A DNA stretch of 64,000 nt, taken from NCBI GenBank assembly GCA_019058245.1, contig JAHPZJ010000024.1:1-64000 (forward strand), given 5' to 3'. Position numbers and translations under genes: made by a program. Below are positions 30,031 to 43,895 of this stretch, one piece after another; position 1 is the first letter of the stretch, and every line of letters starts with the position of its first letter. Source of the DNA: Promethearchaeota archaeon. Lineage in GTDB: Archaea; Asgardarchaeota; Lokiarchaeia; Sigyniarchaeales; SOKP01. The notes beneath the pieces were generated by a model. That model was not told the origin of the DNA. It made no database searches and worked only from the letters and a program-made list of their open reading frames with translations.

Positions 30031-32484
30031 TTAGTTAGAATCTGTTAAAATTTGTTTCTGTTCAATGATTTTTTTCCATTTTTCTAACTGTTTTAACAAC
30101 TTTTGAGTATCTGGAACTTGGGTAATTTGTTCTTTGTATATTGGATAGTATTTATACAAATTATTAAGTAGCTCTATCCAAGATTTTTGATTTTCTGTTT
30201 GACTTGGTATATCTTTTTTTAATTGGAAAATTATTCTTTTTTCTCTTTTCGTTTTGATAATTCTCAAGAAGTTTTTCATCACTAGATTTTTAAATTCTGA
30301 ATATTCTACTGGTCTAAAACTAGCTAATGAGTAGCTCATATTATCATCAGCAAATGGGAAGAATTTTATTAATTTATCTTCTGGAACTTCAGGATTATCA
30401 AGTAATTCCAGTTCGATATCAGATTTATTAAGACTCTCTAGAATAAGATATAGTTCTCCAGGATTTGTTTTTGTTTTTCGCTCAATTTGGTTCGAGATTT
30501 CAAAAATTGGGATAAAGAATTTAGGAAATTTCTCAGGATTCTCGATTCTATATATATATTCTTCTTTTATTATATTGATAATTTGAGTTTCTGTATCGAT
30601 AGCCAATTCATCAGCTGTAAAAGTTAACTGAGTATCTTTCATTTTTTCTTTATGCAATGCTTTAGCTTCTTGTTTTTTACTATAACCCGTAGAAAGAGAA
30701 GTTATAAAACCATTTGCGGCTTCACCTTCTTCTTCTCTTTTAACTAACCTGCTAGTCCTACTTTCACCTTCTAATGCTCTTTGATATATTCTTTCACTTA
30801 GATATTTTCGAGCTTTTTGTTCAGCAACACCTTTCTTTTCAAATACTTCAGTAACTGACATGAAGTCAATAATCTTTACTGACCTTCCTGATTTCTGTTT
30901 TTTTTCTGTTATCATAATATCCATATCTCTTTTTGCCAATTGATTAAGAAGATCATATACTTTTCCTTTAGATAATTGAGTAGCTTTAATTAATTCTCGT
31001 TCAATTATTTCAATAGGATAAGCTTCGCCTCTTCTTATATATTCGCTTCTAATAATTTTATATACTTTATCGAGACTTTTTTCTACTTCACTAACAGTTT
31101 CTTTCTGTAATCTCATAAACATTGAAGTTTCATGAGGTTTTATATAGTAGATTAATAGTGTAGTACCCAAGAAGAAGATCATAAGTATTGAGATGATGAA
31201 TTTATCCCACATTAAGAAAACTCCAATCCCCTCTACTTTTTGAAGTGTTATATTAGTTGCAAGAGCGAAACGTGTTAGAGTTTGAGCAAAAACGCAACCT
31301 AAACACAACAGAATTAATCCATCCTTTTTAAAGATAAATATACGCCATCCAAGGGACTTACCGAGTTTCTTTACTATACGATAAAGAAAATACATTGATA
31401 TAATAAACTCGAAAATGAAAACAAAAGACACAACAGAGCCAGTTGTACCTATTGTGGATTTAAATGCAGCTATAGTTTCATTTCGGAGCAATAAAAAGAT
31501 ACTGATTTGTAGAATTTGAAAGAAAAAAATAAAAAAAATAATCAATGAAAAAGTAAAATTATCAAAAGTGCCAGCTCTTTTAGTTTCAGCTCGTCGTCTA
31601 GTAGATACATATTCAAATATTATAAAAACTAGTGTTAAAACTAAACTAAAATAAATTAATGGCATAATCCGTGTCATTTCCATTTCATAAACAGCAACAG
31701 CATTACTAGGTTCTGGATCATTTAACCCAAAAAAATCTAAAGATAAAAAAACCAAGAAACTTCTATAAAACAATGAAATCACAACAAGCAGAGTTAAAAT
31801 AAAAAATGGAAGTATAACAGCAAAAATATATCTTGGAACTGAATACCTTTTGATGAATCTTGCTTCGATTTTTGTTGAAAATTTTCTAGAATATATATAG
31901 AATCTACTGCTTAATAGAATTAGCCAAATCATCGATAATGCTAATAAATATGTCATATAGTTAATTCCTGTTCCAATATACAGAAATATGATATATAATA
32001 TTGTAAATAAACCGCTATATGCTATTATTTGCTTAATAACAGTATGTTCTTCGAAAATATAGATTCTTATTTTATCAACACTAAAAATAAATGATAAAAC
32101 CAGAAAAAGGGCCAAAATTGTATTTGAAAACACAAAGGGACGCCCAAACATTAAGATATCAATCCATTCTGCACCTGGGAAATTAATTTTTAAAATTAAA
32201 ACCAGAGAGTAAAAAATAAATAAAATATAAAGACCAAAAAACTTTTTTTCATAAGAATATGATTTGGGTTCTTTACCCTCAATATATACTTCTTGATGAA
32301 TTATTTTATCATATATATGAGTTTTGAGTTTTGATTTAAAAGCAAAAAATTTCAATCTTAACTTAGAAGAAAATTTGTTACTCTTACTTTTTGCTCTCGG
32401 TTTATCCATTATTAAAGTTTTTGATTGGCTTTTCGCTTCAGAACCCCTTGACTTCTTTGAAGAATTAGATTGTTTATCGGACAT
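30031..32484 (-). CDS. Polytopic membrane protein with tandem C-terminal winged-helix-like domains
   Basis: About 10 TM segments over residues ~80-450, then two similar units IIRSEY...VYDLLNQL and IIKEEY...LYLILESL. Confidence 0.7.
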   Translation of the reverse strand: MSDKQSNSSKKSRGSEAKSQSKTLIMDKPRAKSKSNKFSSKLRLKFFAFKSKLKTHIYDKIIHQEVYIEGKEPKSYSYEKKFFGLYILFIFYSLVLILKINFPGAEWIDILMFGRPFVFSNTILALFLVLSFIFSVDKIRIYIFEEHTVIKQIIAYSGLFTILYIIFLYIGTGINYMTYLLALSMIWLILLSSRFYIYSRKFSTKIEARFIKRYSVPRYIFAVILPFFILTLLVVISLFYRSFLVFLSLDFFGLNDPEPSNAVAVYEMEMTRIMPLIYFSLVLTLVFIIFEYVSTRRRAETKRAGTFDNFTFSLIIFFIFFFQILQISIFLLLRNETIAAFKSTIGTTGSVVSFVFIFEFIISMYFLYRIVKKLGKSLGWRIFIFKKDGLILLCLGCVFAQTLTRFALATNITLQKVEGIGVFLMWDKFIISILMIFFLGTTLLIYYIKPHETSMFMRLQKETVSEVEKSLDKVYKIIRSEYIRRGEAYPIEIIERELIKATQLSKGKVYDLLNQLAKRDMDIMITEKKQKSGRSVKIIDFMSVTEVFEKKGVAEQKARKYLSERIYQRALEGESRTSRLVKREEEGEAANGFITSLSTGYSKKQEAKALHKEKMKDTQLTFTADELAIDTETQIINIIKEEYIYRIENPEKFPKFFIPIFEISNQIERKTKTNPGELYLILESLNKSDIELELLDNPEVPEDKLIKFFPFADDNMSYSLASFRPVEYSEFKNLVMKNFLRIIKTKREKRIIFQLKKDIPSQTENQKSWIELLNNLYKYYPIYKEQITQVPDTQKLLKQLEKWKKIIEQKQILTDSN

Positions 32485-32906: not shown

Positions 32907-33185
32907 ATGAAAGCAAAAGATCCTGAGAGTAAAGAAAGCTTAATCAAATTAGTTAAAAAAGCAATCGAATTACTTGCTGAAAGAAATATATCTAAAACGG
33001 TAATTTTATCTTCCTATAAGATTAATTCTGTTTTAAAAGAAAATTATGGAGTAAACATTAAGGTTGATAAAATTGGTAGAATTCTAAGTAAGATAGCGAC
33101 GTTGAATGAACTAAAGAGGCTTAATACTAATATTCCAAAGTATAAATTGCAGATAACGAAGGTTTCAAGTTTACGGTTCTTTTAA
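32907..33185 (+). CDS. Small basic winged-helix-like protein
   Basis: 92 aa; SSYKINSVLKENYG...VDKIGRILSKIA...PKYKL. Confidence 0.55.
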   Translation: MKAKDPESKESLIKLVKKAIELLAERNISKTVILSSYKINSVLKENYGVNIKVDKIGRILSKIATLNELKRLNTNIPKYKLQITKVSSLRFF

Positions 33186-33192
33186 ATTTTCT

Positions 33193-34560
33193 TTAGTTTA
33201 AGTTTCGAAAGCTAGTAATTATTTTTTGAAGTTTTTCAAGCAAATTCTTTATTTCGGAATTATTTTCTTTGAAAGGAGTTAATTCTGTATTTAATTTTTC
33301 AATTTTTTCGTCTATATTTTTCTGTAATGGTAATAGTGAATTGTTTATTTTTCGTTCAATATTTCCAGATAATTTATTTATCTGTTCGTTAGTATCTGTT
33401 AATAATCTTTTATAAATATTGATTAATTCATCAATTTGCACAATTGTTTTCTTTCTTTCCTCTGCGTTTTCAGATATAGAATTTCTTAGAGTCTTAAGTT
33501 CCTCTTCAATACTAACTAAATTTTTTTCAATTGAGATCTTTAGCTCTTTAATTAGTTTTTCCTTGAATTTACTAATATGTTCTTTTAATTCTTTATTAGC
33601 TTCAATTCGAGTATCAACATATTTAGAGACATTTTTCTTGAATTGGTATACTGTTTCATCTAGAGTTCTTTTAAACCAATTGTCTACTTTTCCAAGTCCT
33701 GAAGATATTGCTTCTTTCATTTTACTCAAAACCTTGACAATATATTCAGTTCCTTTAGAAGTTCCTTGATTCAGTCCTTCAATCCAATCTCTCATTTGAG
33801 TATTTAGCATCTCTGTAATCTCCTGAGAGAAATTTTCAGTCCCCTGTTGAAAACTTGAAATAATTGTTTTTATTTGTGAGTCACTTCTTAATTCTTTATC
33901 GATCTCTGATGGTTCTTCTGTGATAGGTATTTCTTGCAAATCTCTTGGAGGAGCTTTAACAAATTCATTTACTTCTTTGATAAGAATAGGATCTTTTTTC
34001 TGAACATCTTCTGAAAATTTTTGAACCCATTTATAATACTCTAATGAGGTTGGTTTTTCAATTCCATATTGTATCTTATGATATTTCTCAGCTTTCGAAA
34101 AATCATCTAATCGGTAGATTTCGAATCCAAGTTCTTCATTTTTGCCCATAAGAGTATGATCAAAAACAATAGCAAATCCATAAGGAAATTTTTCACCCTG
34201 AAAATATTGTAAATTCTTTGTATCACTTTCAGATAAATATAAACCCCAAGAAGGGTGAGAATGATAGTATCCTATTAAATCCGAGGAATATTTCTTTCCA
34301 ATTTCAATAAATAAATCATAAATATCTTTATCAAAACCTATTTCTACTTTATCTCCATGAGATAATGGAACTGCATTTTCCACGATAACAATATCTTCAG
34401 TAGAGTCATATTTTCCTATACAAATTCCCATTACTTCTATACTTTGTTCTAATGCTTCATTACCAAACCGTAATACATGAGTGAGCATATTTCTAAAAGC
34501 TTCCTTTTTAATGAATATCTTTCCTTTTTCACTTTTTCCCTTTGATTCCATATTCTCCAT
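33193..34560 (-). CDS. JAMM/MPN+ metalloprotease (Rpn11/CSN5-like) with long helical C-terminus
   Basis: MLTHVLR...EVMG, GYYHSHPSWGLYLSESD, AIVFD; ~240-aa amphipathic helical tail. Confidence 0.85.
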   Translation of the reverse strand: MENMESKGKSEKGKIFIKKEAFRNMLTHVLRFGNEALEQSIEVMGICIGKYDSTEDIVIVENAVPLSHGDKVEIGFDKDIYDLFIEIGKKYSSDLIGYYHSHPSWGLYLSESDTKNLQYFQGEKFPYGFAIVFDHTLMGKNEELGFEIYRLDDFSKAEKYHKIQYGIEKPTSLEYYKWVQKFSEDVQKKDPILIKEVNEFVKAPPRDLQEIPITEEPSEIDKELRSDSQIKTIISSFQQGTENFSQEITEMLNTQMRDWIEGLNQGTSKGTEYIVKVLSKMKEAISSGLGKVDNWFKRTLDETVYQFKKNVSKYVDTRIEANKELKEHISKFKEKLIKELKISIEKNLVSIEEELKTLRNSISENAEERKKTIVQIDELINIYKRLLTDTNEQINKLSGNIERKINNSLLPLQKNIDEKIEKLNTELTPFKENNSEIKNLLEKLQKIITSFRNLN

Positions 34561-34566
34561 TTTTTC

Positions 34567-36033
34567 TTATTCCTCTTTTTTGTTTAATTTTTCGATTTTT
34601 GTTATTAGATCTTTATTTTTCTTTTCCAATTCAATTACATTTTTTTGGAGAGTTTTGATTTCAATTTCTTGTGATTCTAATTTATTCTGGAGTGGTGTTT
34701 TTAAACTCTCCAATAAGATAATAGCCGCTTTTAAATTGGAAAGGAAACTTTTAGTGTCTTTATTTGAATTTATAAAATTACCAACAATTTTATTACAACT
34801 CCTAACAAAATTTTCGGATATCTCTTTAATATTTGTATCTAATTTGTCTGCAATTAACTCCTCTATAGAATTTATATTATTAGATACACTTTCTAACATA
34901 GAGTTTTGTTGATTTAAAGAGTCAGAAGATTTTAATTCCTTTATATTGATATCAGTTAGATCATCTATTTGTTTATTAAATTGATTTAGTATTGCGTGAA
35001 AACTTTCTTCTAATCTTTTTTCTATCAATAAAGAAAATTCATTATCTAGTTCTGATTTAATATTTTCAAATGATCCCTTAAAAAATTCTTGGTATGAGTC
35101 AAATTCTTCGAATTTATCATCAATATACATATCTAATTCATTTAGTTTCTCCTTAATTGAGAATTTAAAATCTTTCTGAAGTGTTGAAATGCTTTCACTA
35201 AGAGTATTTTTTATTATAATTACATCTTTCCTCATCTGTAAGTTCTTCTCAACAGTTTTTTTTATGATATCTTCACTCCAAGAATTTAAAACTGAAATTA
35301 ATGGGTCAATAGATGCTTCTACGAATTTTGTCAAACCTGCTTTTAGGGAGGATAAGATCATTAGAGAATTCAATTCTGGTTTTTTTGTTAGAATTTGACT
35401 TTCACTAGGGAATGTTATATCCCCAAATAAATCAGGCATTTCGTTAATTTCTAGTATAGGTGGTTCTTTTGAATGAACAGAATTAATTAATTCAATTAAT
35501 TTTATATAATATTGCAGACTATCAGGAGGTTCGACAGTAGTTACAACTTCATGATAACCAGACATCTGACCTTTTGCTGGATTATCTAATCTAAATGCAC
35601 GATATCCCATATCTCCAGGTTTTTCTAAATATACATGATCGAAAACAATCCCAATAGCACTTGGATTTGGGGTTTGCCACCCTAATTGGTTTCTAATATC
35701 AGTAGAAGAAAAGAATATATCTAATCCGGGATGAGAATGATACCAACCACAACTGAACCAATTTTTTTCAGCATATGCAGCATCGACCATAGAAAATGTT
35801 ATATAATCTTCTGGGGCAAAAGCAACTTCTATTGCTCCACCATGTGAGATGGGGACTGCATCTTCAATAATAAGCTCTCTTATTCCTTTTTTATCAGGCT
35901 CACCCTCTAACCTACCAATTAATATCCCCATAACTTCTTTAAACTGTCTACGGTCTCTTGCCTTATTCCCAAATCTAAGGACATGCACCAGCATTTTATA
36001 ATAAGCATCTGGTTTAATAATAACAGACGGCAT
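34567..36033 (-). CDS. JAMM/MPN+ metalloprotease (Rpn11/CSN5-like) with long coiled-coil C-terminus
   Basis: KMLVHVLR...EVMG, GWYHSHPGLDIFFSSTD, GIVFD, AFRL; helical/coiled-coil tail. Confidence 0.88.
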   Translation of the reverse strand: MPSVIIKPDAYYKMLVHVLRFGNKARDRRQFKEVMGILIGRLEGEPDKKGIRELIIEDAVPISHGGAIEVAFAPEDYITFSMVDAAYAEKNWFSCGWYHSHPGLDIFFSSTDIRNQLGWQTPNPSAIGIVFDHVYLEKPGDMGYRAFRLDNPAKGQMSGYHEVVTTVEPPDSLQYYIKLIELINSVHSKEPPILEINEMPDLFGDITFPSESQILTKKPELNSLMILSSLKAGLTKFVEASIDPLISVLNSWSEDIIKKTVEKNLQMRKDVIIIKNTLSESISTLQKDFKFSIKEKLNELDMYIDDKFEEFDSYQEFFKGSFENIKSELDNEFSLLIEKRLEESFHAILNQFNKQIDDLTDINIKELKSSDSLNQQNSMLESVSNNINSIEELIADKLDTNIKEISENFVRSCNKIVGNFINSNKDTKSFLSNLKAAIILLESLKTPLQNKLESQEIEIKTLQKNVIELEKKNKDLITKIEKLNKKEE

Positions 36034-36209
36034 TTGTTATCACGATTTATGTTTTAGATTTAGTTTGTTAATGATATATATATAATTTAATTGGTTTTAA
36101 ATATTTGAATAAAAGAATATAATTTAAATCTGATTTTATTGTCATTTCTCTCAATATATTTATAGTTAAGAAAAAATAAAATCAAAAATAGAAAATATAT
36201 GTTTAATTA

Positions 36210-36857
36210 CTAATCGTGAGGTAAGGGTTTACCACAGAAGGGACAGAATCTAAATCCCAAATCTTTTCCACAAAAAGGGCAAAATTCACTAGCTTTACTT
36301 TCAGAATCTTCTATTTCAGCCCCTTCCTTAGGTATTGAAGGTAATTGCCTTGTTGTTCTAACAGTTGGGGCTGATGATTGAGCCTCTGCCTTCCTTGCAG
36401 CTACTGTTGCTTTAAAGGCTTGTCTTCTCTCCTCCTCAAGTTCTTGTTGGCTTTTTATCTCTTCAGTTTTTACCCAACCCTGAACTTTAGGCCTTTTCAA
36501 TTCACTTTCAGGAACACTCTCTAATTCAACTTCTTTTGTTTCTGAAATAGGAGCCATAACTTTTCTCTCTTCTTTTCTCTGCAGAGATTGTTTAACAAGA
36601 GCTTGAGTAGTTTTCATAACTTGATGTGGATTAATATTAGGTATGGCTACAGTTCTAAGAACCCATCCTACAATAATATTTTGATTTGGAAAATCTCCTT
36701 CAACATCCTCATCTTTAAAAACATAGGAGTCAATAATATCCTGTCCTTTAAGCATCCGTACAGCCCATTTTTCATTAATCAGTCCTAATTGAAGTCGGTA
36801 GCTCGTTCCTGGCACACCAAGCTGACCAGATAGGGGAATAAAACCAATTTCAGTCAA
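36210..36857 (-). CDS. Hypothetical protein with C-terminal double zinc ribbon
   Basis: Globular N-terminus, charged linker, FCPFCG...FCPFCG. Confidence 0.75.
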   Translation of the reverse strand: MTEIGFIPLSGQLGVPGTSYRLQLGLINEKWAVRMLKGQDIIDSYVFKDEDVEGDFPNQNIIVGWVLRTVAIPNINPHQVMKTTQALVKQSLQRKEERKVMAPISETKEVELESVPESELKRPKVQGWVKTEEIKSQQELEEERRQAFKATVAARKAEAQSSAPTVRTTRQLPSIPKEGAEIEDSESKASEFCPFCGKDLGFRFCPFCGKPLPHD

Positions 36858-37069
36858 TATAAATCACATTTTATCTCTAAATTATATGTTTTCTGTAATA
36901 TTATAATGATAAATTCGGAATTTAAATTATTTTTTATTTACAGTAAAAATTTATCTTATAATTAAAAATTTTTATCATCACTTTAGCTATCAAAAGGCAT
37001 AAATACAAAAATTTGTATTAAATTTGCATATATTTTCCTCAGAAAAAAAAATTTAAAGAAGATTTTACT

Positions 37070-38020
37070 ATGGTTGTTATTATTCCTAAACAATGTTATC
37101 TGGCAGTGGTAGCTGCTGCGGTTAGATTTGCAAATACACGTATTCCTAAAAATGATTGGTTAGAAGTGAGCGGAATTTTCATAGGAAAGAATCAGGGCGA
37201 TGATGTAATAATTACACAAACATATCCAATAATGCATCAAGAACTGGATAAAGATGCTGTAATCGATCAATATAAATGGTCTGATGAGGATTATATTGCT
37301 TTTAGTATTATTGATGATGAAGCTTTTGAAAGAGGTGAATTTACAGTAGGATGGTGGCATTCTCATCCAGATTTTAAAGTAATGATGTCCCATATTGATA
37401 TACAGACTACTCTTTCCTATCAACAAAATAATCCAAAAGCAATTTCTTTAGTATTTAATCCTACGAGATTAATTCGACAGATTGAATTAGCTGATAAAAA
37501 AGGAGATCCGGATAAACAATTAAAAAATGATCCTGGCTTTAAAATATTCAGATTAGATGATGTAAATTCTGGTGTAGAGGCTTCATATCATACTGCAGAT
37601 TACAGAATTGAAGGATATGATAGCATGGAACAATTAATTGCGCAAACTCAGAAATTTATTATTGATATCACTAATTTTTTTCCTAAAGATAATGTACCAG
37701 ATACATATAGCAAATTCATTGATGAACGCATAGAAAAATTGGAGTCTCTCTTTCTTGGTACTGAAGAGTATTTGACCACCTTAACACATCGAGGAGAAAA
37801 ATCAAGAATTCCAGAAGTTTTAGAAAATCAAAGTCAAGAAATTCGCAAATTTGTAGCAGATACATCTGTAAAGATAGAAAATATCCGGGAATTTATGAAC
37901 TATTTAGAATATAAAGAAAGAGAAGTAATATTTCCTCAGATAGAAGAAATTATAAATAGATGGGATGAACATGTTTCTGGATTAGATAAAAGATTGAAGC
38001 AGCTTAAGAAGAGATTTTGA
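37070..38020 (+). CDS. JAMM/MPN+ metalloprotease with helical C-terminus
   Basis: EVSG, GWWHSHPDFKVMMSHID, ISLVFNP, FKIFRL. Confidence 0.85.
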   Translation: MVVIIPKQCYLAVVAAAVRFANTRIPKNDWLEVSGIFIGKNQGDDVIITQTYPIMHQELDKDAVIDQYKWSDEDYIAFSIIDDEAFERGEFTVGWWHSHPDFKVMMSHIDIQTTLSYQQNNPKAISLVFNPTRLIRQIELADKKGDPDKQLKNDPGFKIFRLDDVNSGVEASYHTADYRIEGYDSMEQLIAQTQKFIIDITNFFPKDNVPDTYSKFIDERIEKLESLFLGTEEYLTTLTHRGEKSRIPEVLENQSQEIRKFVADTSVKIENIREFMNYLEYKEREVIFPQIEEIINRWDEHVSGLDKRLKQLKKRF

Positions 38021-38144: not shown

Positions 38145-40349
38145 ATGAAGAAAATAAATTTTCCTTTTACAGCGATTCTTGGTCAAGAGAAAATGAAAAT
38201 GGGGTTAGTATTGAATGTTATAGACCCTCAAATTGGTGGTATTCTTCTAACAGGACAACAAGGTACAGGGAAAAGTACAGCTGTCAGGTCTCTTGTAGAA
38301 TTGATGCCCCAAATCGAAGTTATAACGGGTTGTGAATTTTCATGTGATCCACATTCTGATATTGACATTTTATGTCAAAATTGTATAGAAAAGCGGGAAA
38401 ATGGTAAAATTCGAACGGAATATAGAGATATGTGGTTAGTAAATTTACCTTTAGGAGTAACAGAAGATATGGTATGTGGGTCGTTATCTATAGACAAAGT
38501 CCTTACAGAAGGGATAAGAGCCCTACATCCTGGTTTATTGGCAAAAGCGAATCGAGGAATACTTTATGTAGACGAAATTAATCTCCTTCAAGATCATATA
38601 GTTGATGTTCTTTTAGATTCAGCGGCTTCTGGTGTTAATATTATAGAAAGAGAAGGTATTTCTGTATCACATCCCTCTAGATTTGTGTTAGTTGGATCGA
38701 TGAACCCAGAAGAAGGCGATTTAAGACCTCAAATAGCGGATCGTCTTGGTTTAGAAGTAAGAATAGAAGCACCTAGAGATCCAGAATTACGTGCTGAAAT
38801 AACTAAAAGAGTAATAGAATTTGATGATCATCCAAAAGAATTTATTCAAGCTTTTGAAAATGAACAGGAAAAACTGAGAAAGGAAATTATAAATGCTCGT
38901 CAAATTTTAAAAGAAGTTCAAATACCAAGCTCAGTTTATGAATTTGTTTCGAAAATTGTAAACGAGTTGGAGATTTTTTCTCAACGAGCTGATATCACAT
39001 TTATAAGATGTGCTCGTGCTCATGCTGCATTAAACAATAGAAAAACTATAACCGAAGATGATCTTAATGTTGCAATGGATTTGGTATTTAAACACAGAAT
39101 TCAATCACTCCATTATGAAATGACACCTGAAGAAATAAAGGCTAAGATTGCTGAAGTTTATGGAAAAATAAGAGAAGCATATGAAAATACTGATATTCTT
39201 CAACCAAATAGGGAAACTGAGGGGCCTTTAAAACATGATGACAGTTCTCAAAAAGAGTTTAAACGTCAATCTGTTGATCCTGAAAAAGTCGATATCCCCG
39301 AGACAAAAGAAGAGAAATTACCCCCTCCAAAATATCCTGATAACAGAAAACGAAATCCAAAACCTGCTGGAGGTTGGAAAGTGAAAAATATTCCTCTTAA
39401 TGAGGATCTACGATTCTTTGAAGCAAAAAATGGTTCTCTTCCCTTTATTTATAAAATGGAAAAAAAAATGACGTCTATCTTAGATAATATTAGGAAAGAA
39501 CGAAAAATTTCTGATTATGGAGGAAGAGGAATAGGTAGAAGAATTAAAATATCTTCATCACAAAAGGGAAGATATGTCTCATACAGGACTTCCATAAGAG
39601 AACAACCAAAATCTATTGCGTTAGACGCTACTATTAGGAATTATCTTAAAAATATAGTATATAATGAAACTGAAATCGATTTTCCTATCCATTTTAACAA
39701 ATATGATCTAATGGATAAGATTTATGAATATCGTGCTCCGCTAGCATTATTCTTTGTATTAGATAGTTCAGCATCTATGTTTTATGTAATAAAACAAATG
39801 ACCGATGTAATTCTGTCTTTACACAGAGAGGGATATAGAAAAAGAGATAAAATTGCCTTAATTATTTTTCGTGGGAAGGAAGCAGTTGTTCTTCAAAAAC
39901 CTACTGTTAATTTTAAAATGGCAGTTAATAAGTTGAAAAAGCTCGAGGGGAAATCATATACACCAATGGCAGCAGCATTAAAAAAAGTATCTGAATTAAT
40001 AAAAATTGAGAAGCTGAAGGATAGAAATATTATTCCAGTTGTTTTTATATGTAGTGATTGCGGAGCAAATATTTCTGTAAAATATCCTGATTTAATAGCT
40101 CAGATTGAAACAGATTATACTTTAATTACAAGGGAATTAGAAGAATTGACAAAAAAATTATCAAAACAAAATATCCATATGGTTGTTCTCGAACCAAAAA
40201 AATCTTATGCAACTCACGCTTTAGGAGTACATACGTATTCAGCAGAACTTATTAAAAAAAACTTTAAAAAATATGCTAATGCTCAGATTTATAAATTTAA
40301 CAAATATAATCCTAATTCATTAATATTAGAATTGAAGAAAATCCTTTAG
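38145..40349 (+). CDS. ChlI/ChlD-like (Mg/Co chelatase-type) AAA+ ATPase fused to vWA domain
   Basis: FPFTAILGQE, GQQGTGKST, PGLLAKANRGILYVDEINLL, GSMNPEEG, Pro/charged linker, LDSSASM MIDAS. Confidence 0.88.
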   Translation: MKKINFPFTAILGQEKMKMGLVLNVIDPQIGGILLTGQQGTGKSTAVRSLVELMPQIEVITGCEFSCDPHSDIDILCQNCIEKRENGKIRTEYRDMWLVNLPLGVTEDMVCGSLSIDKVLTEGIRALHPGLLAKANRGILYVDEINLLQDHIVDVLLDSAASGVNIIEREGISVSHPSRFVLVGSMNPEEGDLRPQIADRLGLEVRIEAPRDPELRAEITKRVIEFDDHPKEFIQAFENEQEKLRKEIINARQILKEVQIPSSVYEFVSKIVNELEIFSQRADITFIRCARAHAALNNRKTITEDDLNVAMDLVFKHRIQSLHYEMTPEEIKAKIAEVYGKIREAYENTDILQPNRETEGPLKHDDSSQKEFKRQSVDPEKVDIPETKEEKLPPPKYPDNRKRNPKPAGGWKVKNIPLNEDLRFFEAKNGSLPFIYKMEKKMTSILDNIRKERKISDYGGRGIGRRIKISSSQKGRYVSYRTSIREQPKSIALDATIRNYLKNIVYNETEIDFPIHFNKYDLMDKIYEYRAPLALFFVLDSSASMFYVIKQMTDVILSLHREGYRKRDKIALIIFRGKEAVVLQKPTVNFKMAVNKLKKLEGKSYTPMAAALKKVSELIKIEKLKDRNIIPVVFICSDCGANISVKYPDLIAQIETDYTLITRELEELTKKLSKQNIHMVVLEPKKSYATHALGVHTYSAELIKKNFKKYANAQIYKFNKYNPNSLILELKKIL

Positions 40350-40392
40350 ATTACAATTTTAATTAATAAAAAGAATTTTTTGAGATATTAAT

Positions 40393-41718
40393 TTAAGGAA
40401 CATTATCAAGGGGTATTCCAAATTTTAAAGAGTAACCAATTTTTTTAAGATCATCAGTGAAGTAGTTAGGATGCGTATACATGCTTATATGAATCCAATT
40501 ATTATTTTTTAAGACTGAAATATGATGAGAAAACATCCTCACAATACCTTGATTTAGAAATTCTATTTCTCCTTCCCTAGCAATATTTCCATCACTTAAT
40601 GTTATTTGTTTATCAGAAATAATCTTGATATTTTTCGCTGATTTCTTTAAAACACTAACAATCGCCTTTGTGGTATCTTCCAACCTTATGGATGGATCAA
40701 TTTCAGAAACACTTATATGCAGATTTTTGAAATTATCTTTAGAAGCTGCAAACATTTGAGACGTATTGGGTATAGGATTTACTTGGACTAAGTAGTCAGG
40801 GTAAGAAATTGAAAATGCAAGCGATTCGGAATTGTACTCATAAAAATTATCTTTTATTTCTCTTACAGGTGTAGGAAATTTTTCACTAATCTTTACTGCA
40901 TCATTTTTTATCCGATCAAATCTATCTTTTATTAAGTCTATATACTCTGGATGAGTCATAATATAAAATACATCATTTTGAATAGCATAAATTACCATTT
41001 CTGCCACAACCTCTGGATCCATCCCTAATCCTGACATTTTTACAAGATTTTCTATAAGTGGTCGATTTATTTCTGCTTCTTTTGGTGATGGTCGATAAAA
41101 ATCCTTAAGATCAGTCCTCAAACGAATTGTATTTTTTAAAATATTTGTATTTATTAAGCCCGGGCAAAGAACAGAAGCCCCAACATTAGTATTAAAACAT
41201 TGATGTGCAATCATTTCACTTATAGAAACAACTGCGAACTTTGACGCAGTATAAGGGCCACCTCTCCCCGTAAGATGTCCTCCTACTGATGCAGTATTTA
41301 CTATATGACATGGTTCTCCACTTTTCAACATACGTTTTAAAAAAGAAATAATTCCATGGATCACTCCAAAAAGATTAATTTTTAGAGTGTGATTCCAATT
41401 TCCTATTTCTAAAAGATGAGCAGGACCAGTACCTCCTACTCCAGCATTATTACATAGTATATTCACTTTCCCAAATTGCTCATAAGAAGCATTAGCGAGT
41501 TCTCTAACCTGATTTAGGTCGCTCACATCAGTAACAAAGGATAAAACTTCAGCACCCATCTTATTAAGACTTATTAATGCATCGTTTAAAGATCTTTTAT
41601 TAATATCTGCTATAACAATTTTCATACCTCGTTTAGCAAATGCATGAGCCAATGATAATCCAATCCCACTTCCCCCACCTGTAACTACAGCAACCTTTCC
41701 TTCAAAATTCTTTATCAT
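40393..41718 (-). CDS. Short-chain dehydrogenase/reductase with C-terminal PsbP/DcrB-like domain
   Basis: TGGGSGIG, NNAG, YTASK; extra ~130-aa tail beginning FSISYP. Likely ATG at 41718; ORF track starts at 41841. Confidence 0.82.
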   Translation of the reverse strand: MIKNFEGKVAVVTGGGSGIGLSLAHAFAKRGMKIVIADINKRSLNDALISLNKMGAEVLSFVTDVSDLNQVRELANASYEQFGKVNILCNNAGVGGTGPAHLLEIGNWNHTLKINLFGVIHGIISFLKRMLKSGEPCHIVNTASVGGHLTGRGGPYTASKFAVVSISEMIAHQCFNTNVGASVLCPGLINTNILKNTIRLRTDLKDFYRPSPKEAEINRPLIENLVKMSGLGMDPEVVAEMVIYAIQNDVFYIMTHPEYIDLIKDRFDRIKNDAVKISEKFPTPVREIKDNFYEYNSESLAFSISYPDYLVQVNPIPNTSQMFAASKDNFKNLHISVSEIDPSIRLEDTTKAIVSVLKKSAKNIKIISDKQITLSDGNIAREGEIEFLNQGIVRMFSHHISVLKNNNWIHISMYTHPNYFTDDLKKIGYSLKFGIPLDNVP

Positions 41719-41896
41719 AATTATCTTACTAGATATTTTTTTTGATTTCTTAATACGTAGAAAATATGTAAGATTATTTAAAAAGTAATTCTTCAAAACA
41801 GTAATTTGATGTATTTTCAAGCAAGTTTTAGAAGAAAGCAAATAGTAACTTGATTTTCAAAAAACTTCTTTAGTCTTTTCTTCTATTTGTTTATTA

Positions 41897-43138
41897 ATGG
41901 CTGATAAATCAATTTCATGTCTAGTTGTTGGATTTAATACTCGTCCTTTAGCTTACTCCTTAAACAGAGCAGGATATGATGTTTATGCTGTAGATTTCTT
42001 TGGTGATTTGGATTTATTTCCATATGTAAATGATTCTATTGTTATATTGCAGGTTTTAAATAGTAATTATAATTCATTGAAGGATAAATATAGCCAATAT
42101 TTAGTACAATATGCAATAAAATTATATTATAAACATCAAGATACACATTTTTTCTTAATAGGGAGTGGTTTAGATGATGATTATGAAGGAAGAAAACTTA
42201 TTTTAGATGAACTTAAAACATCTAATATTAAAAGTGTCAATAATGATTTAGAGATTATTGAAAGAGCTAGAAATATTGAATCAATTTTTGAATTTTTAAA
42301 ATCTTACGGTTATAAAATACCAAGATCTTTTTCTTTTGAAGATTTGAACATACATAAATTAAACGTAGAATATCCTTTCATATTAAAAAAAAAGAGAAGT
42401 GCTGGAGGGATTAATGTATTTAAAATTAGAAATGAAAAGGAATTATTCTCTCACATAAAATCCTTCGAAGAAAAATTTTTTAATCCAAATGAATGGCTAA
42501 TTCAGGAATATATTGAGGGAATTCCTGTAAGTTGTACAGTAATTTCGAATGGTGAGGAATCTGAAGTTATTTCTATTAACCGTCAAATTATTGGTATGAA
42601 ATGTCTAAATTCACCAAAATCTTTTATGTATTGTGGAAATATAGTCCCTGCAGGAATTTCGAAAGATCAAGAAAAAATAATATCAGAAATATCTGTTCTT
42701 TTAACCAAAAAATTAGGTTTAAAAGGGATTAATGGTTTTGATTTTGTATTAAAAGATAATTATCCATATCTTATGGAATGTAATCCTAGAATCCCTGGTT
42801 CAATTAGAGCTTCTGAAATTGCTTTAGATTTAAATCTTTTAGACCTTCATATAAAAAGTTTTATCCCAAATCAATGGAACGAACTTAAAAAACTGATAAA
42901 GAATGCTGAAATTAAGTATATTGCCACAAAATTAATATATTTTGCCCCCAAAAAAATTGATAAAAAAATAATACCAAAAATCAATAATCTAAAGTATATT
43001 CATGATAAATCTGAATCAGATAGAGATATTATAAAAGGGGATCCTTTATGTTCTATATTATATAAAGCAAAAAACCATTTAGAGTCTTATAATGGAGCAT
43101 TAAAGATTGTAGAGAAAATAAATAATATAATTAAATGA
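41897..43138 (+). CDS. ATP-grasp family protein (archaeal, C1/pterin-associated type)
   Basis: AVDFFGDLD, ILKKKRSAGG, IQEYIEG, GINGFDF, ECNPR. Confidence 0.82.
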   Translation: MADKSISCLVVGFNTRPLAYSLNRAGYDVYAVDFFGDLDLFPYVNDSIVILQVLNSNYNSLKDKYSQYLVQYAIKLYYKHQDTHFFLIGSGLDDDYEGRKLILDELKTSNIKSVNNDLEIIERARNIESIFEFLKSYGYKIPRSFSFEDLNIHKLNVEYPFILKKKRSAGGINVFKIRNEKELFSHIKSFEEKFFNPNEWLIQEYIEGIPVSCTVISNGEESEVISINRQIIGMKCLNSPKSFMYCGNIVPAGISKDQEKIISEISVLLTKKLGLKGINGFDFVLKDNYPYLMECNPRIPGSIRASEIALDLNLLDLHIKSFIPNQWNELKKLIKNAEIKYIATKLIYFAPKKIDKKIIPKINNLKYIHDKSESDRDIIKGDPLCSILYKAKNHLESYNGALKIVEKINNIIK

Positions 43139-43157
43139 CATCTTTTATTGAATTCTT

Positions 43158-43895
43158 CTATTGAATGATTGTTTTAATCTTTGCGATGTAACCGCCTAAT
43201 TTTCTACCATCTGATTCAGGAACCGCGAGTGCTAAAAGGCGATTCTCATCTAAATCATGCAATATTACTGAACCATTTTCTCCACCAATTATGGAATATT
43301 CCATATGACTTTCTAGTAATACTCCAGATAAGTTATATAAAGCTGCCACCATAGCTGAAAGAATTGGTTCAGGCATTGTAGACTGTATTTTTATTGGTAA
43401 TCCATCTTTTGTAATTATTGCTAAAACAAGAGTATTTGGTATTGCTCTTTTAAGACCTTTAAATATTTCTTCCTTAAGAATATCAGAAGTTTCAATAATA
43501 GCAGATATTTGCAGACTTAATTTTTGTAATTTATTTATATATGAATCTAATCCTTCAAGTTCAGCTAATTCTCTATTGAGATAACAAATCATAGTTAGAT
43601 TTTCTACTAAAATTGAAAGAATAATCTGATCTTTACCAGTAATTAAATTATAAGATACTTCTTGATTAAGCGAATCCCTTAACATTTTAGATGATAGATA
43701 TACAAGGCTGCTATTTGCGGCAGTGACTTCTCCAGTCGTCATCTTCATATCTTTTTTGAAAATACTCGAAATTTGTGTTCCTTCTGGAGTTCCTACATTA
43801 ATACCAATTATTGCTGATGAGGATTCCATTTCTTTTTCAACTAATTCTAAAACATCAGCTTTTAATTCCTCTAGAATCTTTTCTTGTCTTTCCAT
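43158..43895 (-). CDS. Tandem (double) roadblock/LC7 domain protein
   Basis: Two roadblock units, INVGTPEGTQISS and LAIITKDGLPI...SAMVAAL...GENGSVIL. Confidence 0.8.
   Translation of the reverse strand: MERQEKILEELKADVLELVEKEMESSSAIIGINVGTPEGTQISSIFKKDMKMTTGEVTAANSSLVYLSSKMLRDSLNQEVSYNLITGKDQIILSILVENLTMICYLNRELAELEGLDSYINKLQKLSLQISAIIETSDILKEEIFKGLKRAIPNTLVLAIITKDGLPIKIQSTMPEPILSAMVAALYNLSGVLLESHMEYSIIGGENGSVILHDLDENRLLALAVPESDGRKLGGYIAKIKTIIQ

Follow-up and report, generated by a model that had tools for sequence, protein, structure and literature searches.

Organization of the locus

The DNA analyzed here (the window, 64,000 nucleotides) comprises the first 64 kb of the 94-kb contig JAHPZJ010000024.1 from a Promethearchaeota archaeon, the assembly of which is 3.1 Mb and 76% complete; named homologues mostly carry the label Promethearchaeota (Loki-type Asgard archaea). 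Three genes for JAMM/MPN+ proteins are located within 4.8 kb of this window, and two of them, B and A, form the pair that is the main subject of this study. Gene A (33193-34560, 455 amino acids (aa)) and gene B (34567-36033, 488 aa) lie in tandem on the minus strand with a 6-bp gap, and a GAGGA Shine-Dalgarno-like motif is present in the last codons of B (junction 34561-34575). Gene C (37070-38020, 316 aa) is a paralog transcribed divergently from the plus strand. A zinc-ribbon gene (ZR; 36210-36857, minus strand, 215 aa), the usual upstream neighbour of B, is situated between B and C.

All three proteins exceeded the Pfam JAB cut-off (E-values of 2e-9 for A, 4e-11 for B and 2e-13 for C), and the motif E...HxH-x7-S-xx-D is complete in A (E42/H100/H102/S110/D113), B (E33/H99/H101/S109/D112) and C (E32/H97/H99/S107/D110). 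On the minus strand, the catalytic residues are encoded at 34222-34437 in A (E42 to D113) and at 35698-35937 in B (E33 to D112), the span in B including an Rpn11-like Ins-1 segment. Three of the four Pfam JAB matches in the assembly fall within these 4.8 kb. A fourth, long-tailed paralog (D, 529 aa) is found on a different contig of the same genome, and near-complete relative genomes carry 5-8 MPN genes each.

An initial annotation, made from the DNA letters alone, had described three intact JAMM/MPN+ genes, with A and B in tandem 6 bp apart, both with long helical tails, and C divergent. The open reading frames, motifs and Pfam matches agree with this description. A motif V[LV]RF[GA]N, which was said to be shared by all three proteins, is not matched exactly in C, where the sequence reads AVRFAN. 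The annotation had also noted that ubiquitin, E1/E2/E3 and PCI genes are missing from the window, and indeed no match to the ubiquitin, E1, E2, RING or PCI families was obtained within its 64 kb. Winged-helix-type PCI matches were obtained on other contigs of the 76%-complete genome, one 790-aa protein (C27:43395-45767) having three winged-helix stretches that score as PCI. A distant 655-aa homologue of this protein, together with an SPFH gene, is located just upstream of B-A in one relative (G020).

Heads and stalks of B and A

The monomer model of B (predicted local distance difference test score, pLDDT, 73; predicted template modelling score, pTM, 0.40) consists of an MPN head (residues 1-186), a low-confidence flexible linker (190-221) and a single helix of 264 residues (223-486; 34576-35367, minus strand), which would measure ~39 nm if extended. 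The stalk of A has 228 residues (~228-455; 33196-33879, minus strand), corresponding to ~34 nm. Comparison of the family profiles aligned A with B at an HH probability of 100 over 417 columns and through the tails, where a single 4-residue gap was required, indicating that the two stalks are homologous and in register. In both, the hydrophobic period is ~3.65-3.7 residues over the first half and in part 3.5 further on, and each tail has only two prolines. Such periods are typical of hendecad and heptad coiled coils, respectively.

The best structural matches of B were BRCC36, Rpn11, CSN5 and CsRpn11. Foldseek placed BRCC36 at the top (6gvw_B, E 3e-12), and the match to Rpn11 (E 2e-11, TM-score 0.75 by target) likewise assigned B to the MPN fold; CsRpn11 was the best match in a sequence search against solved structures (E 1e-10). 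For A, the MPN fold is supported via profile comparison, with E ~1e-11 against Rpn11, CSN5 and BRCC36 and 2e-3 against Rpn8. None of the window proteins matched the Pfam families RPN11_C, CSN5_C or MitMem_reg at E 0.1.

B and A as a conserved unit

The conservation of the pair was surveyed in 80 loci, each from a different species-level genome, which were found using patterns without any catalytic residue. In all 78 loci with room to read, A was located directly 3' of B and in the same orientation, with a gap of -10 to +30 bp in 74 of these (median 6 bp). The pair was also found in two other families of the order, where neither ZR nor C adjoins it (G020, G024 and G116), and in two genomes it occurs twice, each time as a pair (G116 and G281). 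The conserved synteny for which the initial annotation had asked is thus present for B and A across families of the order. Long open frames that might have represented natural B-A fusions (in G116, G078, G041 and G040) each proved to be two separate genes. In some lineages, one or two extra short MPN genes (200-250 aa) without recognisable motif lie directly upstream of B (L065:946-2163, L226:3-1100 and L266:635 onward).

The evolutionary rates of A and B were found to vary together. Branch-rate covariation gave a partial Spearman rho of 0.81 for A-B given C and ZR (103 branches), and of 0.79 given C and the unlinked paralog D (39 branches, with a tree topology from which A and B were excluded). 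In the 103-branch set, the partial values given the other genes were 0.03 for A-C and 0.16 for B-C, while A-C reached 0.43 in the 39-branch set. Tail-tail covariation of A and B beyond heads and neighbours amounted to a rho of 0.63. Three genomes (G002, G004 and G013; L034-L036) stand out in that their A and B share just 38-45% identity with the copies in the window, compared with 66-89% for C, the chelatase-like gene and the membrane gene of the locus. This divergence fits either a joint acceleration or a cassette replacement of the pair.

Of the multimer predictions suggested by the initial annotation, the one for full-length B with A was made, using alignments, and resulted in a weak pass with a score of 0.59, compared with 0.00 for the best control. 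The mark was passed by 58 of 80 solved complexes and by 2 of 110 mismatched pairs; passes with a score of 0.60 or less comprised only 7 of the 80 solved complexes and both mismatches. The runs agreed in at least 41% of contacts with a partner pLDDT of at least 61, and no interface is given.

Catalytic asymmetry between B and A

All five catalytic residues (E-H-H-S-D) are intact in B in 80 of 80 genomes and in A in 34 of 78. The same asymmetry was seen among the homologues: the residues are intact in all full-length members among 120 homologues of B, and in 71 of 119 homologues of A, the remainder showing many distinct loss patterns. In C, they are kept in all 57 readable copies (three with S to T). 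Two active MPN+ subunits, which the initial annotation had taken as the design of the system, are therefore real in the window genome, judged by their motifs, and are not the general design. With A degenerate in 44 of 78 genomes and B in none, they are better described as the form that an MPN+/(optional MPN-) pair takes in the lineage of the window.

Changes in the intactness of A were counted on a tree built from B, without trait columns, since a tree of A itself contains the motif columns. The fewest changes required were 8, or 10 for the metal ligands alone. Loss is the likely direction of change, given the intact motifs of B, C and the deep-branching A copies (G020, G116 and G285), and allowing for recombination and long branches, catalysis in A would have been lost independently at least 5-6 times.

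The dead copies of A do not appear to be decaying. Ratios of nonsynonymous to synonymous substitution rates (dN/dS) of 0.12-0.33 in 13 close pairs, similar to those of intact copies and alike in head and tail, indicate purifying selection. Helix 1 is the best-conserved part of the dead copies (0.96, versus 0.51-0.78 elsewhere). In the 24-sequence clade that includes the A of the window, all five catalytic residues are invariant, versus 41 of 86 polar positions, and A of this lineage may therefore still bind zinc or cut.

Gene C and the zinc-ribbon gene

The initial annotation had assigned a long helical tail to all three MPN proteins and had considered C and the zinc-ribbon protein as possible further subunits. 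The tail of C is only ~110 aa. The alignment of C with B is confined to the head (residues 2-188), and the tail of C (208-316), which is not homologous to the stalks, was modelled as a compact three-helix bundle folded back (pLDDT 93 and pTM 0.89 for C alone). C matched the Rpn11 structure with Z 17.6 (root-mean-square deviation 3.8, 153 aligned residues), which assigns it to the MPN fold. The tail matched spectrin-like and other three-helix bundles at Z ~10, which is within the range of common arrangements, and it was therefore given no family.

In 70 of 80 loci, C and B are no more than 4 kb apart, and ZR usually lies between them. Three closed, single-contig genomes from the sister family contain full-length orthologues of C (320-335 bits), and A and B were not found there. 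In another closed genome (G006), an inversion splits ZR into pieces of 126 and 77 aa and leaves C 1.66 Mb away from the B-A pair (C1 near 2468600 and 809500; L027 and L039). The tail, the strand, the weak covariation and this separate occurrence speak against C as a subunit, and C is probably a separate, always intact MPN+ enzyme outside the A-B unit.

The ZR protein consists of a conserved N-terminal domain, a charged linker and a single C-terminal four-cysteine zinc ribbon. It had been read as a double zinc ribbon; only two CxxC knuckles are present (C193/196 and C205/208, rather than four), corresponding to one zinc site, and the Pfam DZR score of 19.8 bits is below the cut-off of 27.3. An Atlas search with this protein returned only its own kind of cluster (0.85).

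In 11 of ~70 genomes, the C orthologue carries an insert of 30-32 nt inside the JAMM motif, at a site corresponding to 37375/37376 of the window, where it is absent (L173, L175, L176, L179, L185, L189, L193, L194, L196, L232 and L240). In 11 of 11 cases, a 4-bp central helix with two 3-nt bulges can be formed, i.e., the archaeal bulge-helix-bulge splice motif, in two of them via a compensatory change, and excision at the bulges restores the frame. By these features, the insert is an mRNA intron of patchy distribution.

Neighbouring genes

A conserved 92-aa gene (32907-33185) is convergent with A, the two being 7 bp apart; beyond it lies a gene (30031-32484) whose 817-aa membrane protein product has a weak winged-helix match. 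Both are usual neighbours in the family. On the other side, C is followed at 38145-43895 by a highly conserved ChlI/D-like AAA+-vWA gene (77-90% identity in most relatives), an opposite-strand gene that most relatives lack, and genes for an ATP-grasp and a roadblock-domain protein. The block of ChlI/D-like, ATP-grasp and roadblock genes usually moves together with C. A promoter and terminator scan with a bacterial model returned 25 sites, with 32.5 expected, and was therefore not informative.

Origin of the pair

MPN domains from Asgard archaea were placed in a tree of 82 rows. A and B formed one clade (Shimodaira-Hasegawa-like approximate likelihood ratio test support, SH-aLRT, 97) restricted to genomes of this Lokiarchaeia order. 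C and D branched apart from it, and MPN genes sampled from other Asgard classes fell beyond a branch with a support of 99. No full-length A/B-type match was obtained outside Lokiarchaeia among 201 Asgard genomes (best E ~1e-26), and the open frames behind the matches in other classes were mostly 140-370 aa (27 checked). The sister order has stand-alone, intact, long-tailed JAMM relatives.

The initial annotation had called for an MPN phylogeny with eukaryotic proteins and had left open whether the system is an analogue or a precursor of the eukaryotic complexes. On the Asgard domains examined, A and B are order-restricted sister paralogs, and since their duplication is internal to one order, they are probably an analogue and not a precursor of BRCC36-Abraxas or Rpn11-Rpn8. 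The tree, which holds no eukaryotic rows, fits a separate duplication that parallels the eukaryotic pairs rather than being ancestral to them. A literature search, conducted largely without subscription papers, revealed no description of the B-A pair.

Possible substrates

A weaker suggestion is that the substrate of A/B would be a ubiquitin or ubiquitin-like conjugate. The head of B is of the Rpn11 type with a conserved Ins-1 segment, and ubiquitin-like, E1-like and RING genes are present elsewhere in the source genome. An E2 search of this 76%-complete genome found none, although each of 60 relatives has E2 genes. The nearest long-tailed relative in the sister order (470-500 aa) follows E1 and E2 genes in one genome (G035), is flanked by E2, E1 and vWA genes in another (G037), and abuts a vWA-RING gene in a third (G039). 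Loci of the sister order with a stand-alone long-tailed JAMM gene among E1, E2 and vWA(-RING) genes are L075:3359-10368, L078:318-5082 and L074:6360-9165. Candidate substrates in the source genome are two ubiquitin-fold proteins (C20 near 65500-65750 and C13:155753-156100), of which the one on C20 ends in GG-F, and so needs trimming by a protease, and the other in TAG, as well as four SAMP-like proteins ending in GG.

Proposed mechanism and alternative explanations

B and A probably pair up, and we propose, with a probability of about 0.6, that they zip into a heterodimer with B as the enzyme and A as its partner, and with C acting separately. The sequences themselves show the linkage, the homologous stalks, the catalytic asymmetry, the selection on A and the rate covariation; the dimer, the roles of its subunits and the substrate are inferred. 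B and A would have arisen when a long-tailed Rpn11-like JAMM gene was duplicated in tandem within one order of Lokiarchaeia. The two may be co-translated, as the 6-bp gap and the GAGGA motif suggest translational coupling. In the parallel heterodimer, the heads would meet at helix 1 and the stalks would form a coiled coil of 34-39 nm. B would act as the indispensable zinc isopeptidase, and A as a structural or activating partner, the catalysis of which is optional, being apparently kept in the window lineage and lost in many others. The stalk might serve as a spacer or docking rod for the heads, which is a weaker suggestion. C would be an independent enzyme of a monomeric JAMM type, and ZR a conserved neighbour. 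The PCI-less heteromer joined by helical tails that the initial annotation had envisaged is thus likeliest for B and A, given their linkage, rates, in-register tails and the weak prediction, and is not supported for C and ZR. The fuller proposition, that B and A form, on a coiled-coil stalk of 34-39 nm, an obligate MPN heterodimer, which arose independently of eukaryotes and in which the second subunit repeatedly becomes a pseudo-enzyme, with the window genome at the two-active-head stage, is put forward more tentatively, at a little under even odds.

Several observations weigh against this proposal. The conservation of helix 1 may have another cause than an interface, as this helix also packs against the MPN core. 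Once the tails were controlled, no head-to-head covariation of the rates of A and B was seen (rho 0.10). Genes of one operon may show correlated rates, or be transferred jointly, without their products touching, and the branches in the test are not fully independent of each other, so that the rate covariation supports B-A binding and does not prove it. Close cousins of a true partner also pass the complex prediction, and A is a cousin of B; the pass cannot separate a hetero- from a homodimer, and it may reflect this likeness or the solved MPN dimers known to the predictor. The long-tailed relatives of the sister order are not resolved as A/B orthologues in the tree. Finally, the E2-adjacent JAMM in the family of the window is a separate, tail-less paralog of ~277 aa, and A/B is therefore not an obvious housekeeping ubiquitin-processing enzyme.

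The ambiguity between homo- and heterodimer would also accommodate A and B as co-regulated but separate homo-oligomers, with dead A acting alone as a ubiquitin-binding or scaffold protein, and the single relatives in the sister order must indeed function without an abutting twin. The near-absolute abutment of B and A, their fixed order, their duplication as a pair and the tail-tail covariation argue against this explanation, which we consider unlikely. About equally unlikely is a role of the tails in filaments, higher-order bundles or the wrapping of lipid in the manner of apolipoproteins, with the heads carried on a membrane or lipid particle. The 11-residue-type periodicity would suit such a role, and the family profiles match apolipoprotein A-IV (A 7e-8, B 8e-7), apolipoprotein A-I and apolipophorin-III; the same searches, however, also match chemoreceptor, spike-repeat and designed bundles, so that the match reflects periodicity. 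Moreover, the Pfam apolipoprotein score is 21 against a cut-off of 90, and with two prolines per tail there are no proline-punctuated 22-mers.

A single MPN+ complex of three or four subunits, built from A, B, C and perhaps the zinc-ribbon protein, seems improbable. The proximity of C and ZR to B in most loci and the A-C correlation in the smaller set would be expected from it, but C is encoded on the opposite strand, its non-homologous tail folds alone, and its partial covariation with A and B in the larger set is low. C also occurs where A and B were not found, the inversion separates it from the pair, and the pairs of the other families have neither gene adjoining. Least probable of all is that B-A is a surviving precursor of Rpn11-Rpn8, CSN5-CSN6 or BRCC36-Abraxas. 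Its heads are of the Rpn11/BRCC36/CSN5 type, but the A+B clade is restricted to one order in a tree without eukaryotic rows, full-length counterparts were not found in the other classes surveyed, the profile of A is far from Rpn8, and the catalytic losses of A are many and recent.

Significance and comparison with known systems

Pairs of active and inactive MPN proteins form the core of the proteasome lid, the signalosome, eIF3, BRISC and BRCA1-A. The origin of a dead partner cannot be watched in eukaryotes, as every case is ancient. B and A provide a natural series among living relatives, in which B is always intact and its twin A is intact, half-lost or fully lost, and which could be used to test whether a partner is needed for structure or activation before its catalysis is lost. 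If the fuller proposition is true, natural copies of both kinds, intact and dead, would allow the route from homodimer to an enzyme and pseudo-enzyme pair to be retraced. The long stalk would furthermore hint at a ubiquitin-related assembly of Loki archaea that has not yet been described.

Among archaeal proteins, the deubiquitinase CsRpn11 from the ubiquitin operon of Caldiarchaeum subterraneum is the closest solved relative of B by sequence. It has ~200 aa, adjoins a Ub-E1-E2-E3 operon, and forms a crystal homodimer through helices 1 and 4 while being monomeric in solution; an active/inactive MPN pair organization was stated as not known in archaea (PMC6043591). Unlike this short type, A and B have 455-490 aa, are paired, and lie outside such an operon in the family of the window. 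With Rpn11-Rpn8, CSN5-CSN6 and eIF3f-h, the pair shares the MPN fold, the JAMM motif and the Rpn11-like Ins-1 segment, as well as the MPN+/MPN- logic in many relatives. The proteasome lid, COP9 signalosome and eIF3 contain six PCI subunits, whereas B-A has no linked PCI genes; C-terminal helices of the Rpn11, CSN5 or Rpn8 type, as defined by Pfam, were not matched in the window proteins, and A resembles Rpn8 no more than it does the active subunits.

BRCC36-Abraxas and BRCC36-KIAA0157 (ABRO1), the cores of BRCA1-A and BRISC, are likewise PCI-less MPN pairs. The BRCC36-KIAA0157 dimer is centred on helix 1, and its C-terminal helices bundle (PMC4579573). Helix 1 is also the best-kept part of the dead A copies, and an active enzyme with a pseudo-enzyme partner is found in 44 of 78 B-A relatives, A being intact in the window. 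In place of the short two-helix bundle (helices 4 and 5) on the MPN domains of BRCC36-KIAA0157, B-A has stalks of 230-265 residues, in B a linker of ~30 residues followed by the 264-residue helix, and the identity to BRCC36-Abraxas is ~20%. B-A would thus work like BRCC36-Abraxas without being a member of that group, having neither the inactive partner in the window genome nor the short bundle, and its descent looks separate.

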